Counted from the stretch's first letter, positions 8,341 to 62,597 are shown. The stretch: 64,000 nucleotides of DNA from Octopus vulgaris (GCA_951406725.2 OX597842.1:7564001-7628000), one strand, 5' to 3'. The notes: generated by a model not told the origin, from the sequence alone. Made by a program: numbers and translations.

Positions 8341-8567
8341 ATTAGAAGAAATGAGGTACTCAGAAATCTGGATGGTTTTATATTTAGAGATATTTATTTG
8401 TATATTACATGTTTTTATAAATCATATATCATATATTAGCGCTTTCGTCCACTCTAGTGGAGTTTTCAAATTATATGATATAAGATTTATAAAAACATGC
8501 AACATACTAATAAATATCTGTAAATATAAAAGCCATCAAGATTTCTGGGTACCTCATTTCTTCTAAT
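8341..8567. mobile_element. Short (TA)n-embedded foldback element with a central hammerhead motif (Penelope pLTR-like)
   Basis: About 55 bp inverted arms (ATTAGAAGAAATGAGGTACTCAGAAATCT... / ...AGATTTCTGGGTACCTCATTTCTTCTAAT) between TA arrays. Confidence 0.65.
8425..8481 (-). ncRNA. Minimal type I hammerhead ribozyme motif, U3-A8 core variant
   Basis: Minus strand: tatcatataat-TTGAAAA-c-tccac-taga-gtgga-c-GAAA-gcgc-TA-atatatgata; helix I, helix II and palindromic helix III (AGCGCT). Confidence 0.55.
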
Positions 8568-8791
8568 TATATATATATATATATATATATATATATATAT
8601 AAGGCAATTGACACATACATACATGGACCCACCCACACACGAACGTACGAAAATATGTTTACATCTTAATGCATCATTGCTGTGTGTAGAGAGAAACAGA
8701 TAAGATACATGTGTGTGTATATAGAGAATTTTATGCGTGTGTATATTAACACAGTGACAGATGTAGAGTATATACGTATTAATGAATGTTT

Positions 8792-8831
8792 AGTGACTTC
8801 GAACTTTCGGTTTGCTAGCCATTAACAGACT
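8792..8831 (-). ncRNA. Degenerate minimal hammerhead-like motif
   Basis: Minus strand: agt-CTGTTAA-tggctagcaaacc-GAAA-gttcgaag-TC-act; two core deviations and short helices. Confidence 0.3.
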
Positions 8832-10022
8832 GTATGTATACATACAGTCAATACATACCTATGTATATATATGTAAGTATACACGCACACCATACCTATG
8901 TACAAATACGTATATCTATTTATCTGTATATCGATCTATTTATCTTAAATATTCGATTCGAGTTTTGGCACAAGGCCAGCAATTTGGAGGGTGGGTTAAA
9001 TCGATCCCCAGGGTTTAACCCCGAAAGTATAAAAGACAAAGTCGATCTCATCTATTGTAAATATTCCATATTAAAATATAAATCCCAAACCAAAGATAAT
9101 AGAATCGAGATCGAAGAAAGGAAAAAGACACAGCCATCAATATATATATATATATATATATATATACAGACAAACACATACATATACACACACAAAGATA
9201 ATCATTTATGTGTGCGCAGAAATATATATACACACACACACACACATATATATATATATCGTTTGTAAAAACATAAATCCGAAAGAAGCACACTAGAGCA
9301 ATATATACATACATACATATATATGTATATATATATATATATATATATATATATATATATATATTGAGGGCATTACTATACATAAATGCCACACGCTAGG
9401 AGGGACTCTTAAAGTCAAAACTACCAAAATAAATTTTATATACACACATATATATAAATCATTATATAAATTTATACGTGTGTACATGTATGTGTGTGTA
9501 TATACACGCACTATATATATCTTCACTTCAACTTTATCACTGAGTTTTATATATATATATACATACATATACACAGACATCTACAAGTGTCTTTATGTAC
9601 GTGTCTCTATTGTTTAGAACCAGGTTAGTCACGATTATGCAAACCTGTAATCAAAGTGTCCCATCCAACCGTGAACATCCCAGCTAATTGCATACCTAGG
9701 ACTACCTTCTGTGATATCTTCTCTTTTATACAAATAACAGGGTGTGGTTCCAGAGAGACACTGCTGCTATTTCTTGCAGGCTCATTGACCGTCTTGACAG
9801 TGAGGCAGACAGCCTTGTGTATATGGGTATTTACACGTGTATACATGTATATATATATATATATATATATCCGTATACACACGTGTAAATGTGTGAATGC
9901 CCATATATAACTATAGTCCTCTGTAAATATACATCGTCCTAACACACGTGTTTATATATATATATAAGTATATACAACGACGAAATAGGCGATCTTTCGA
10001 AATAAATATATAAATTTATCTC

Positions 10023-10735
10023 CTGGTGCTGTATGAACATTTAATGTGGTTTTAGGGTTAGGTTTTGACTGCTATTTCTAGCGTGATGGTATCTCTTAGA
10101 TACCCTAAATTATAATATAAATATATATAGAGAGAGAGAGAGCGAAGGTAACCCCTATCATGCGTGTGTGTGTACAAACACGCATCAGCCACCTCTTTAA
10201 ATATTGTATCATATATAATATACATATATATGGGGGTGTATATATATATATATATATACCCCCATATATATATATATATATATATTTCAACAATTGAGGG
10301 TAAAATTAATTAATTATTAATCAATTTCACCAAGTGTTCAGTATACTGAACACTTGGTGAAATTGATTAATAATTAATTAATTTTACCCTCAATTGTTGA
10401 AATTATAATTAATCTCCCTCTAATTATTGCTTCGGATTTTACCGAAATAAGCATAGCGTTTGATGATTTTAACCCACGCTGGTGCTGTATGAACATTTAA
10501 TGTGGTTTTAGGGTCAGGTTTTGACTGCTATTTCTAGCGTGATGGTATCTCTTAGATACCCTAAATTATAATATAAATATATATATATATAGAGAGAGAG
10601 AAGGTAACCCCTATCATGCGTGTGTGTGTACAAACACGCATCAGCCACCTCTTTAAATATTGTATCATATATAATATACATATATATGGGGGTGTATATA
10701 TATATATATATATATATATATATATACCCCAATAT
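10023..10735. repeat. ~240 bp direct duplication (10023-10265 / 10479-10735) bracketing a perfect palindrome
   Basis: CTGGTGCTGTATGAACATTTAATGTGG...GGGGTGTATATA...CCCC repeated almost identically. Confidence 0.85.
10284..10403. repeat. Perfect 120 bp loop-less palindrome
   Basis: ATTTCAACAATTGAGGG...CAGTA|TACTG...CCCTCAATTGTTGAAAT, centred at 10343/10344. Confidence 0.95.
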
Positions 10736-11189
10736 ATATATATATATATATATATATATACCTACACATGTAGGTCTCCATACCCCTCTGTCATACACAC
10801 ACACACACACACACATATATATATATATATATCAATTAACATATATATATATATGTATGTATGTATGTATATGTATATATACACCCGTAAATCTATACAT
10901 ACCTGTGTTTTTGTGGTCAGTTGAATGACAGCTTTCCTAAAATTCAGTTTGCTGTCTGTGTTCCCCATTCTGACTCTCACACTCACACTCTCTACCTTGT
11001 CTCACCCTCACTCACTGAAACATACTCTCTCTATCACCCTCGCATGCTCTAATCTTCTACTCTTTCTATCTCTTCTTCCTCCTTCTACTTCATTAAATTT
11101 TCCTTCTCACTCTTTCTTCTTCCGTCTATTTCATTAACCTCCCCTTCTCTCTCTCCCTTTCCCTCAGATTATATTTTTCTCTCTCTCTC

Positions 11190-59650: not shown

Positions 59651-60148
59651 ATGAGAAGGCCTAACAGACCTGGTAGAAACAGCAGCCAAATCTCCCTCAA
59701 ATCACACCTTACTGTCTTATCTATGTATATATGTATGTATGAGCCAATGAGGGGGACCTCTACATGGTAGCTAGACCTGGTAGAAATAGCAGCCAAATTT
59801 CCCCCAAATCACACCTTACTGTCTTATCTATGTATATATGTATGTATGAGCCTATGAGGGAGACCCCTACATGGCAGGTAGACCTGGTAGAAATAGCAGC
59901 CAAATTTCCCCCAAATCACACCTTACTGTCTTATCTATGTATATATGTATGTATGAGCCTATGAGGGAGACCCCTACATGGCAGCTAGACCTGGTAGAAA
60001 TAGCAGCCAAATCTCCCCCAAATCACACCTTACTGTCTTATCTATGTATATATGTATGTATGAGCCTATGAGGGAGACCCCTACATGGCAGCTAGACATG
60101 GTAGAAATAGCAGCCAAATCTCCCTCAAATCACACCTTACTGTCTTAT
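59651..60148. repeat. 107 bp tandem repeat, about 4.7 copies
   Basis: TGAGGGAGACCCCTACATGGCAGCTAGACCTGGTAGAAATAGCAGCCAAATCTCCCCCAAATCACACC...; period 107, also visible in ORF starts 59764/59871/59978/60085. Confidence 0.92.
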
Positions 60149-61146
60149 CTTTCTGCTACTTGGATATAGGTGTTATATTCGTCGTAAAAAACTTTCCTGT
60201 CACACACTCACGCACACGCACACACACACACACACACACACGCACCCTCACACACACACACACACACGCGCACACCCACACACCCACTCACACACACGCA
60301 CGTTAGCTTACAATTTTATTTATATATTTGCGTGTCTATGTGTTGAAAGAGGAAGTGGGAGGCAGAGTGAAAGAATCACTCACTACAGTAAGTCAATTAC
60401 TTTCATTTTATTCGTTGCCCACTGTGTGTGTGCGTTTGCGTGTGCTGTAAACCAGACTAAGAAAAGCATTTGACACACACACCAGAATGTGAGTTTTCTG
60501 TAAATTTTGCTTAATTGGAGTTTAAATTTTAAAAACTGGACCTGGCATGACGCGATGCATTGTACTCTTAAAAATGCAAGGTAAATTGTAATTGAAGAAA
60601 TCCTATATTGTAGATTTGTATAACTCCCAAAGGGAGGCAGATAAAATCTGCCTTTTATAATAAGAGATAATAATTCTTTCTAATTCATGCACAAAGTCAT
60701 GCACAAACCACATGGTTCCAGGTTCAGTCCCACTGCATGGCACCTTGGGCAAGTGTCTTCTACTATAGCTTTGGGCTGACCACAGTCTTGTGAATGGATT
60801 TGGTGGATGGAAACTGAAAGAATCCCATCGTATATATGTATGTGTGTGTTTGTGTGTCTGTGTTTGTCCCCACAACATCGCTTGGCAACCGATGCTGGCG
60901 TGTTTATGTCCTCGTAACTTAGCGGTTCGGCAAAAGAGACTGATAGAATAAGTACTAGGCTTACAAAGAATAAGTCCTGGGGTCGATTTGTTCGACTAAA
61001 GGTGGTGCTCCAGCATGGCTGCAGTCAAATGACTGAAACAAGTAAAAGAATAGTGTTTAAACATAGAGCCTCAATGCCTTATGTCACTGTATTTAATGTA
61101 TATCTCTGTCTGCATGAGTTACCCACAGGTATAACTAAGAATCTGG

Positions 61147-61205
61147 TGTACAGGTAAGTGCTCAACAAGGCTCAGTCCTCAGCCCACTCCTTTTCGTTAT
61201 TGTCC
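61147..61205 (+). mobile_element. Tiny non-LTR RT fragment
   Basis: VQVSAQQGSVLSPLLFVIV. Confidence 0.55.
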
Positions 61206-62470
61206 ACCTAAACATATTCTATATGACCCATTTAAATGGATATTAGAATGATGATGATGATGAAAATAGCAGATGTCTTAGTGTTCAAACATATAATCAC
61301 ATTTTCAATACCTTCTGTCACTATATAATGTACAAGAAAAACGCCCCCACACCGTCCAATGGATGGTGCTGAGTTGTCAAACATTTAAACCAAATTTTCT
61401 CAAGCCAACTTGTCCGACCGTCCCATAGGCCTTCCCTTTGAGAAACACTGATTTAACCTAAATTTGAGACACCAGCAAAAGAAGAAATAAAGATAGACTT
61501 TTTTTTCCTATTCCAAAGAAAAACGATTTTATTCACACAAATATGCAACCGAAGAGTTTAAAGTACCAGTAATGATAAGGCTGTTGACTGGGAGAACACA
61601 AACATGTGTGTAGATTTGTATGTACGTAAGCATGTGTGTGTGTGTGAGCTGGTATCTCTTGAGTTGTGATTTGTCTGTGTATGTGCGTTTAGGCGTACGT
61701 TTGCAAATGTGCGTGTGTGGATGTTTCTTAACAAACCAACCGTAAAGAAAGACAATTGTTATTTAAATTTAAATGTACAAGCCAATCATATTTTAGCGTT
61801 CGATTCTTAACTATTTCTGAACGTAATACTGTTTTTGTGTAACAGTTGAAATTATAAATTGCAGTCGTATGTACATTTGTACACCTGTGGAACTTAATAT
61901 CATGTAAACCATATGCTTTTATTTCTTATTTTGTATGTATATGCAGATATTTAATGCTTTGCATGGTACTGTAATACTATTGTTGTCCTTGGTTTTGCTA
62001 TTATATTGCTAATAATGTGATCTATATGTTGTTTTGCTAGTATTAGTGTTATTAATAATAAGAATAATGATATTGGTAGCATTAGTGGTAATGATAATGG
62101 TAATGATGTTAATATTGTTAACGTTAATGACATTTTGGAAATAAATATAAATTAATATAACGTACTCTTGTCTCTGTATATCTGCATTTGGGTATTAATA
62201 TGTGTATGTTTTCTACATTGTAATATCATAATATTAAGTTGAAAAACTGTAACATTGAATATGGAACATATGTATGTTTATTGATTTATATTATTTATAT
62301 TATTATGTATATCTATGTATATATATATATATATATATATATATATATATATATATATATATATATATAGGAGTATGAGTATATGCACTCATATGTATGT
62401 GTACATGATATATTATGGGTATGTACCCACACTAATATGGGTGTATATTTAATTTGGTTTGTATTTCATA

Positions 62471-62597
62471 ATCTCCGAAGAGGCCTTGGGATATTTTTGT
62501 AAATGTCTCATTTATAACTACATATTGGCCTATCACACATGGATAATATAAGTAAAATGAGACACCATTATCTGCATGGCCGAAACAGCTGTAAGAT
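62471..62597 (+). ncRNA. Hammerhead motif with a long helix II insertion (U4C variant)
   Basis: atct-CCGAAGA-ggcc...(tgtctcattt/aaatgagaca)...ggcc-GAAA-cagctg-TA-agat; palindromic ACAGCTGT helix III. Confidence 0.55.

Follow-up and report, generated by a model that had tools for sequence, protein, structure and literature searches.

Minimal hammerhead ribozymes of the dimer type with palindromic helix III have been published for the ends of Penelope-like elements, together with the occurrence of several families per genome, the U3-A8 core and TA targeting (PMC4209133, PMC8557442). The survey of 2014 lists a U3-A8 core for Schistosoma and U3-G8 for Saccoglossus (PMC4209133), while U3-A8, U4C (in a viroid), A6C (with low activity) and the U10.1-U11.1 mismatch were found in nature by Perreault et al. 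2011 (PMC3088659). In Penelope-like elements the hammerhead is widespread and slow to cut, and in one in vitro test insertion proceeded without it.

The window analyzed here is a stretch of 64,000 nt from Octopus vulgaris (GCA_951406725.2 OX597842.1:7564001-7628000, positions counted from its first letter), where the original prediction placed about seven hammerhead families at eight sites. Every one of the eight strings was found where it had been reported, and at seven of these places the string is a minimal type-I hammerhead motif, predicted to be a ribozyme, that belongs to a high-copy repeat. They form six families, since the site at 8831 was rejected: A (22915), B (55658), C (35659/59271), D (8481), E (56064) and F (62475). 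The observation is largely real and largely known. With the hammerheads of the 2014 survey (PMC4209133) the motifs share type I, short helix I, palindromic helix III and an additional nucleotide between 9 and 10.1; both also form several families in one genome, occur as truncated single copies and as inverted pairs, and are located in 3' repeats of RT-EN elements. A short palindromic stem III, Penelope context and cleavage in dimers, the latter predicted here, were also described by Lunse et al. 2017, as presented in review PMC6765202. The order of RT followed by GIY-YIG, 5' truncation, inverted copies, an optional tail, targeting of (TA)n or microsatellites and a hammerhead near the 3' end are common with the C-terminal EN+ clades Neptune, Nematis and Hydra (Craig et al. 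2021, PMC8557442). Since such a system was described in 2014 (PMC4209133), what had been announced as a large and mostly unannotated system is a further case of it, unannotated and with core variants that are new, rather than a new system, and the gain is incremental. The new part consists of several large families with altered catalytic letters, for which self-cutting is predicted.

Hammerhead motifs and chance expectation

A first look at the genome gave 1,315 candidate matches for family A (22860-23040), 649 for B (55600-55790), 1,405 for C (59215-59310), 1,625 for D (8400-8520), 291 for E (56030-56130) and 1,484 for F (62450-62620), all of which are candidates and are not to be taken as copy numbers. 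The same search with 8760-8860 of the minus strand returned a single candidate, the site itself. This rejected site (8792..8831, minus strand) has a C3.A8 mismatch and is matchless in an evenly spaced genome sample of 1.2 Mb; with a descriptor loose enough to accept it, the window yielded 4 matches, compared with 2.4 ± 1.8 over 100 shuffles. It is, therefore, a single-copy sequence at chance level and is not supported as a ribozyme family.

In the 1.2-Mb sample the relaxed descriptor found 39 short matches versus 0, 1 and 1 in three shuffles, so that the motifs are above chance, as the original prediction implied. Thirty of these 39 do not conform to CUGANGA, which bears out the expectation that searches based on this core would miss most of them; roughly three quarters of the genomic hammerheads here escape a core-fixed search. 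The mismatch-class descriptor gave 6 matches against 0, 0, 1, 0 and 0 in shuffles, and decoy cores gave none. Rfam reported no hammerhead in the window at gathering score. Of 189 weak matches 150 were listed, again with no hammerhead, and these were miRNA models falling on simple repeats.

An origin of the motifs by chance in AT-rich and repeat-rich DNA would account for 8831, and it could be argued that the strict descriptor is passed by just three of the eight window copies (22915, 55658 and 62475) and that repeats inflate counts relative to shuffles. Most window copies of the motifs are indeed damaged, and 8481 passes a mismatch-tolerant descriptor. For families A–F a chance origin is nonetheless refuted by the excess over shuffles with both descriptors and zero decoy matches, by the recurrence of one architecture in families that are unrelated, in a matching position with respect to the ORF and 3' end, and by covariation at 3-8 in family D, which makes this explanation scarcely credible. 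A further strict-descriptor match, at 38208, falls within a transposase-like ORF and is regarded as chance.

The type-I order of the minimal core (N3-N9, helix II, GAAA, helix III, UH and closing helix I) is above chance everywhere except 8831, but canonical U4, A6 and G10.1-C11.1 are not kept: C4 is found in A and F and U6 in B, while D and E are mismatched at 10.1-11.1. The 3-8 pair is C3-G8 in A, B and F, and both compensatory swaps, U3-A8 and G3-C8, are present as had been claimed. U4C does occur in two window sites (22915 and 62475), A6U only in one (55658) instead of two. Non-canonical cores are thus real for the U4C, A6U, U3-A8 and G3-C8 families, but the core of 56064 is canonical. Helix I has 4–7 bp in B, C, E, F and the sister subfamily of A, 2 bp in D, and a mismatch in the window subfamily of A. 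Helix sequences had been said to differ between families, which fails for 22915 and 55658: these two are not independent because helix II (GAGC/GCTC), helix III (ACGT) and the downstream block are common to both.

Penelope-like elements carrying the motifs

Families A, B, D and F, four of the six, continue upstream on the same strand into a Penelope-like RT/GIY-YIG ORF. For family B this is seen in the element at 52340..55787 (plus strand), where remnants of the RT and C-terminal GIY-YIG ORFs, broken by frameshifts, are followed by a 3' region ending at (TA)n. The family B motif (55658..55685, plus strand) has an A6U core, an inserted A, 4-bp helix II, a 4-nt palindrome and A17; its helix I is 5 bp in the family, with one private mismatch in the window copy. 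One motif does, therefore, lie in the 3' end of a genuine Penelope element. The RT of the family to which this element belongs matches PF00078 and 813 homologues. Among 12 window ORFs Pfam recognized RT in two LINE-type ORFs only and none in fragmented Penelope pieces, and a PDB sequence search with the Penelope RT gave 0 matches. For GIY-YIG the Pfam match was weak in a family A relative (L170, E 0.004, under cutoff) and absent for the window piece, so this assignment rests on motifs and tblastn.

Family A is represented by a 5'-truncated Penelope-like copy with a simple-repeat-rich 3' region, flanked by two (TA)n arrays (21898..23039, plus strand). Its motif (22915..22941, plus strand) combines a U4C core and one inserted A with 4-bp helix II, a 4-nt palindrome and C17; helix I contains a U.U mismatch in the window subfamily and is 4 bp in the sister one. 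Two loci of this family (L170 and L171) are 96% identical over 3.5 kb, reaching back into the GIY-YIG domain. Families A and B share with Neptune the Cx4CxxC linker (PMC8557442), and one helix I pair flips G-C/C-G between them in 14 hand-picked copies.

Family F sits in a 5'-truncated copy of a second clade of Penelope-like elements (61604..62974, plus strand) with its end at (TA)n. The motif (62475..62593, plus strand) has a U4C core, an 8-nt palindromic helix III, A17 and 4-bp helix I, and its helix II, of 4 bp, closes a loop of 92 nt. Upstream ORFs contain RT and GIY-YIG in one locus (L337), and GIY-YIG about 2 kb from the motif in another (L174); an R4/RTE-like ORF upstream in the latter is a separate insertion. 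Compared with the clades described by Craig et al. (PMC8557442), family F probably falls into a more distant group and the 2–3 kb 3' regions of A and F are long.

In family D a 5'-truncated Penelope-like 3' end (8307..8471, minus strand), terminating at (TA)n, is the direct copy of an insertion whose inverted arm occupies 8472..8567 (plus strand). The motif (8437..8469, minus strand) has a U3-A8 core, C.C at 10.1-11.1 over 5-bp helix II, a 6-nt palindromic helix III and A17. The long helix I previously ascribed to 8481-8425 is an artefact of this inverted repeat: uninverted copies have 2 bp, both A-U. The upstream ORF includes RT in two loci (L338 and L339) and part of GIY-YIG in 4 of 30.

Copies share the 3' end, are truncated from the 5' side, occur as inverted or tandem copies and have two alternative ends (tail). 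Within 200 nt (TA)5+ was found at five of the eight window sites against a window background of 23%, in agreement with the reported position of most motifs beside (TA)n. The preference was measured on families A and B, where (TA)n lies within 190 nt downstream of 28/36 A/B-type copies versus 16% of random places and directly at the end in 23/24 (A) and 22/25 (B) top matches; in C, D and F it was seen by eye.

Altogether this makes it probable that the seven motifs are minimal type-I hammerheads near the 3' ends of six families, four of them Penelope tails, which likely act as weak self-cleavers in dimers formed through palindromic helix III. The GIY-YIG endonuclease of the element would open (TA)n arrays, and its RT would begin to copy the RNA close to the 3' end and in most cases stop after 150–250 nt. 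Such early stops may have scattered roughly 100,000–200,000 motif-bearing stubs. Each active lineage would carry its own core (U4C, A6U, U3-A8, G3-C8 or mismatched 10.1-11.1), so that variants would be amplified as family traits. Cleavage, probably slow, would free the RNA of the element from read-through transcripts or circularize it. Because the motif is complete in the copies, the copied template would be RNA that was uncut or re-ligated. The whole core is kept in 27/29 family-B-type copies, none of which starts at the cleavage site, and this absence of a 5'-end pile-up speaks against reverse transcription running off there. The proposed Penelope-driven and TA-associated system is thus upheld by the ORF link of four families and by the association with TA, though not for the spread of the copy at 59271.

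Core variants and predicted activity

The variants are family-wide traits: C4 is present in 25/25 top matches of A and in 28/30 of F, and the exact G3-C8 core in 4,130/4,832 of C. For family D the first 100 of 325 exact-flank matches were tallied at 3-8 as U3-A8 (49), U3-G8 (30), C3-G8 (18), C3.A8 (2) and A3.G8 (1). Thus 97 of these 100 are paired, including the 30 U-G, and U4 and A6 are kept in 100/100, though left free in the pattern; such counts are not independent events, as copies are related and CpG decay can yield some of the changes. In 27 copies of family B mean conservation is 0.96 for the core versus 0.87 for the flank, and the most variable motif position is N7 (majority 0.44).

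It may be supposed that the origin from Penelope is correct, but the families with A6U, U4C or C.C plus 2-bp helix I are dead or nearly so, having hitch-hiked in master copies or being kept as a folded RNA signal for protein binding or dimerization. We consider this possible but doubtful. Copies retain the uncut motif, A6 changes (A6C) and U4C reduce activity in vitro (PMC3088659), and in a lizard Penelope element insertion in vitro was unaffected by inactivation of the hammerhead, with no reads ending at the cleavage site (PMC11167929). GCAA replaces GAAA in several C3 copies of family D, and family C, as one nearly uniform expansion, shows no within-family covariation at G3-C8. On the other hand, the pair at 3-8, a feature of the active hammerhead fold (PMC8495972), has moved in family D through C-G, U-G and U-A with few C.A; in family B N7 varies while U6 and the remaining core stay; and G3-C8, which takes two steps to reach, would hardly arise unless the pair were under selection. 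Minimum-energy folds did not form the hammerhead for 22915 or 62475, and self-dimer cofolding paired through helix III in D, E and F, not in A, B and C. No joints were seen in the contigs examined for expression, which give neither ends nor strand.

Weak cleavage in dimers being the preferred reading, comparison with the literature delimits what these cores add. None of the 56 examples listed in the available part of the 2014 survey, whose descriptor fixed the core, has C4, U6 or G3-C8; G10.1-C11.1 is called there highly conserved, unlike the mismatches in D, E and others here, and a 92-nt loop II and cephalopods are absent from its list (PMC4209133). The variants of Perreault et al. are rare single cases, and here they characterize whole families, each with copies in the hundreds to thousands, while A6U, G3-C8 and the C.C, A.C and A.G mismatches were not found in the accessible text of that paper (PMC3088659). 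Family-wide A6U, U4C, G3-C8 or mismatched 10.1-11.1 were not found in the literature compared, which was available in part, and Lunse et al. 2017 may already list some; for A6U hammerheads no listed title was on topic. Among the matches listed for octopus hammerhead ribozymes there was none beyond Craig et al., and supplements of PMC8557442, PMC3088659 and PMC4209133 (part 3) may contain cephalopod families or variants.

Tentatively, the genome might be regarded as a mutational scan of the hammerhead core performed by nature. In at least eight families, lineages of Penelope would have repeatedly fixed A6U, U4C and G3-C8, changes believed to cripple the ribozyme, and a recurrent 10.1-11.1 mismatch (C.C, A.C, U.U, A.G) combined with a helix III palindrome of 6–10 nt. 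They would be selected as slow dimer-dependent cutters or as non-cutting retrotransposition signals, and would account for most of about 100,000–200,000 motifs that escape core-fixed searches. Families with thousands of copies that fixed such changes are natural test sequences for the question of whether cleavage or the fold is selected.

Families without a linked ORF

Family E is a fragment (about 56034-56227) of a tandem unit of ~408 nt. The window motif (56064..56100, plus strand) is mutated, with private changes, and has a canonical core, A.C at 10.1-11.1 and 4-bp helix I; in its relatives helix III is a 10-nt palindrome and, by eye, 17/19 non-duplicated loci have the canonical core. One tandem pair with copies 408 nt apart was found (L185), and fragments are circularly permuted, so that beyond the motif the downstream sequence leads back to the upstream one. 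Family C is present as a degenerate motif with G3-C8 at 35659..35695 (plus strand), core-truncated, with C11.1G and without the 5' strand of helix I, in a fragment extending to about 35775, and as a motif at 59271..59306 (plus strand) with G3-C8, an inserted G, 5-bp helix II and a 6-nt palindrome. In the latter a deletion has removed the 3' strand of helix I, a helix of 7 bp in the family. Its inverted partner (59070..59254, minus strand) is truncated inside the core and ends at (TA)n. No linked ORF was found upstream in the copies examined of E (L185, L186) or C (L340, over 1.3 kb, and L178-L183).

Both families are probably non-autonomous passengers of the Penelope machinery. Alternatively, they could be independent retrozyme-like units replicating via small circular RNAs and not tied to one Penelope family. 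The permuted sequence and 408-nt pair of E, and the fixed 5' end of C about 25 nt before the core with no ORF in the copies seen, point in this direction, and 408 nt is within the 150–450 nt of animal non-LTR retrozymes, which have one hammerhead per unit (PMC7229834). Like them, E seems to be an AT-rich non-coding tandem unit with one type-I hammerhead each, but it differs in its minimal motif with the A.C mismatch and 10-nt palindrome and in consisting mostly of dispersed old fragments (PMC7229834; 10.64898/2026.07.22.740005). Inverted pairs and (TA)n ends in both C and E resemble Penelope insertions, which renders independent replication unlikely. It would also be compatible with the Penelope-based reading, because retrozymes of this kind have been argued, in a preprint of 2026, to derive from Penelope elements and to be non-autonomous (10.64898/2026.07.22.740005).

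Under the preferred reading, that of passengers, the copy at 59271 would later have been multiplied as cargo of another element. The inverted pair of family C lies inside a composite mobile unit of ~2.1 kb with fixed ends (58583..60667, plus strand), the start being fixed in 28/30 loci and the downstream end in 23/30. The suggested Penelope-driven spread of this copy is thus not supported. By its end signature this unit is a candidate rolling-circle element of Helitron type, a class expected to have fixed ends, to insert between A and T without duplication and to capture cargo.

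Hammerhead motifs in the window and in the genome sample

All eight motif strings claimed by the original prediction are present in the window, and their exact positions were found. The strict type-I descriptor (G10.1-C11.1, helix II of at least 4 bp, palindromic helix III) was passed by the motifs at 22915, 55658 and 62475, which represent families A, B and F, respectively, while the block-shuffled window gave an expectation of 0.03–0.23 matches per run (40 shuffles per setting). Those failing it are damaged copies of good families, 8831 excepted. For this last site a hammerhead was rejected: in a search that skips common words its single genome candidate was the site itself, no match was registered in a genome sample of 120 segments, each 10 kb long, and once the descriptor was relaxed until it accepted the site, the window gave 4 matches against 2.4 ± 1.8 in 100 shuffles, which is the chance level. 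An Rfam search of the window returned no hammerhead match at gathering score.

The sample was taken from the 2.8-Gb genome (227 contigs) at fixed steps across contigs C1–C28. A relaxed core descriptor (Watson-Crick 3-8 pair, U or C at position 4, A or U at position 6, spans up to 40 nt) found 39 matches in these 1.2 Mb versus 0, 1 and 1 in three shuffles, so that the motifs do exceed the shuffle rate, as was anticipated. Cores with a mismatched 3-8 pair gave 13 matches versus 12, 8 and 10. Searches based on CUGANGA would indeed overlook most of these motifs, since 30 of the 39 have other cores, and 3 of the 9 with CUGANGA represent a longer motif parsed in another way. Non-redundant copies of the window families, registered in the same sample by BLAST, numbered 51 for A/B-type, 9 for C (35659 and 59271 in the window), 3 for D (8481, minus strand), 2 for E (56064) and 3 for F. 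These 68 copies per 1.2 Mb give a rough extrapolation of 100,000–200,000 genome-wide or about 4 per 64 kb, and the seven motifs of the window are thus only about twice the genome average.

Core variants as family traits

The suggestion that core variants are fixed within families rather than sporadic was confirmed for C4 in A and F, U6 in B and G3-C8 in C. C4 was present in 25 of 25 top matches of family A, which were selected by likeness, and in the unbiased 1.2-Mb sample it was found in 10 copies, with a sister U4 core in 4. In family F it occupied 28 of 30 top matches, and a diverged copy had U4. Family B combines the U6 core with any base at N7; among 27 copies picked by U6 the mean share of the majority base was 0.96 in the core, 0.95 in the helices, 0.87 in the flanks and 0.44 at N7. 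Families A and B are sisters with common helices II and III, and the outer pair of helix I differs between them, being G-C or C-G (one event, judged from 14 copies chosen by hand). At ~22250–22280 (+), about 660 nt upstream of the 22915 motif and within the 3' region of that element, there is a degraded sequence resembling the core and helix II of family A. In family C, which has a helix I of 7 bp, exact matches of the 23-mer with G3-C8 make up 4,130 of the 4,832 obtained with five core positions left free. In family E the core was canonical at 17 of the 19 loci that are not duplicates.

Family D gave 325 matches when five core positions were left free, and the first 100 of them contained U3-A8 (49), U3-G8 (30), C3-G8 (18), C3.A8 (2) and A3.G8 (1), while U4 and A6, although also free, were invariant. 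For the 3-8 pair a Fisher test gave p ~3e-5, but the copies are related. In copies with C3 at genomic loci L313, L317, L323, L330 and L334 GCAA replaces GAAA, a subfamily-wide change of core position 13. A further U3-A8 family with helix I of 6 bp was noticed at L230:96(+) and L235:8667 and 9029(-); two of its copies lie on one strand 362 nt apart, in a retrozyme-like manner.

The long helix I proposed for 8481–8425(-) proved to be a product of the inverted arm 8472–8567, as uninverted copies have 2 bp. The 10.1-11.1 pair is mismatched in families D (C.C) and E (A.C). When such a mismatch was made obligatory, the descriptor found 6 matches in the 1.2-Mb sample, versus 0, 0, 1, 0 and 0 in shuffled sequence and none with decoy cores. 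Across all loci there are at least 8 families of this class, nearly all with palindromes of 6–10 nt. Further ones, with U.U, A.G, A.A, A.C, C.A or G.G and a palindromic helix III of 6–8 nt, were found at L172:4569(-), L337:552 (reverse strand), L193, L221, L243, L244, L254, L005, L021, L116 and L128, two of them also having C4 or U3 variants; one mismatch motif in L172 lies shortly downstream of a Penelope ORF.

In the literature, the hammerhead architecture and its occurrence in Penelope elements are already described, as are multiple families within one genome, inverted pairs and the U3-A8 and U3-G8 cores (Cervera and De la Pena 2014, PMC4209133); TA targeting is known as well (Craig et al. 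2021, PMC8557442); U4C, A6C and U10.1-U11.1 are rare natural variants (Perreault et al. 2011, PMC3088659), and C3G/G8C is a partly active laboratory mutant. Family-wide A6U, U4C, G3-C8 or C.C/A.C/A.G mismatches were found neither in these texts nor in targeted literature searches, the comparison being made without Lunse et al. 2017. That the variant cores are dead or non-cutting seems rather unlikely to us.

Association with Penelope-like elements and (TA)n

The proposed Penelope link holds for families A, B, D and F, which have an ORF upstream; in family C no linked ORF was found in the fetched copies. In the window, the family B motif follows the GIY-YIG region of a frameshifted Penelope-like element at a distance of ~570 nt. 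The reverse transcriptase (RT) of its sister copy matches PF00078, and the best 120 of 813 homologues of this RT have PF00078, PF26215 and sometimes GIY-YIG PF01541. Two unlinked copies of family A share 96% identity along 3.5 kb, a stretch that reaches back into a GIY-YIG domain. In family D Penelope RT is upstream in two unlinked copies, with the endonuclease part in 4 of 30 loci. For family F, L337 with RT and GIY-YIG is continuous with L174, whose motif comes ~2 kb later. Family C copies begin at a fixed 5' position, ~25 nt ahead of the core, end at either of two 3' positions and are often paired head to head; family E behaves as a ~408-nt circularly permuted unit. TA association was also reproduced: of 36 A/B-type copies, 28 have (TA)5+ no more than 190 nt downstream and 22 have it upstream, versus 16% of random places.

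The hammerhead repeats have a directly observed anatomy, copy families, ORF links and TA ends. As PMC4209133, PMC8557442 and PMC11167929 suggest, they may spread by endonuclease-primed reverse transcription into AT-rich targets, and the hammerhead would cut slowly as a dimer, processing or circularising element RNA. Among 29 B-type copies no pile-up of 5' ends was registered at the cleavage site: 27 keep the core, and the two remaining ones begin 14 and 32 nt beyond it, which counts against a simple cut-then-copy model. Helices I and II were predicted in single copies of C (L263) and E (L155), in B copies and in 8481, but not in 22915 or 62475; predicted self-dimers paired via the palindrome in D, E and F only. 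Four public contig sets contain many diverged records whose alignment is confined to 22908–22957, with loose ends on both sides, and the motif is therefore the best conserved block among family A relatives.

Composite element and other features of the window

The 59271 copy is part of a ~2.1-kb unit (58583–60667; relatives L003–L030) that was multiplied in its entirety; over 91 bases all 40 of the 40 scored places were identical. Its start is fixed in 28 of 30 loci and its end in 23, most others running past the locus edge. The unit is inserted between A and T, in some cases in tandem, and carries, besides a 107-bp tandem repeat, the inverted hammerhead pair of family C and further fragments; a second start is at 41019. 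Its ends look like those of a rolling-circle (Helitron-type) element.

The region ~55000–62600 of the window, which itself spans 7564001–7628000 of contig C29, belongs to a local segmental duplication (also at 7.22–7.29 Mb and 7.64 Mb of G000:C29), and 56030–56130 has six identical copies on C29, ~20–22 kb apart, four of them inverted. LINE-type RT remnants occupy 17764–18897 (-, PF00078), 34710–35102 (-) and 47259–49331 (+, PF00078 and zf-RVT). ORF remnants at 37055–38371 (+), hAT-type transposase-like by eye and without a Pfam match, include a CUGAUGA descriptor match at 38208. A near-perfect ~120-nt inverted repeat (14144–14264), weakly scored by a miRNA model, is probably a MITE. Microsatellites and repeats are abundant throughout, and a 62–66-bp tandem repeat family recurs at 28818–29645, 24664–24920, 23410–23680 and 30329–30460.
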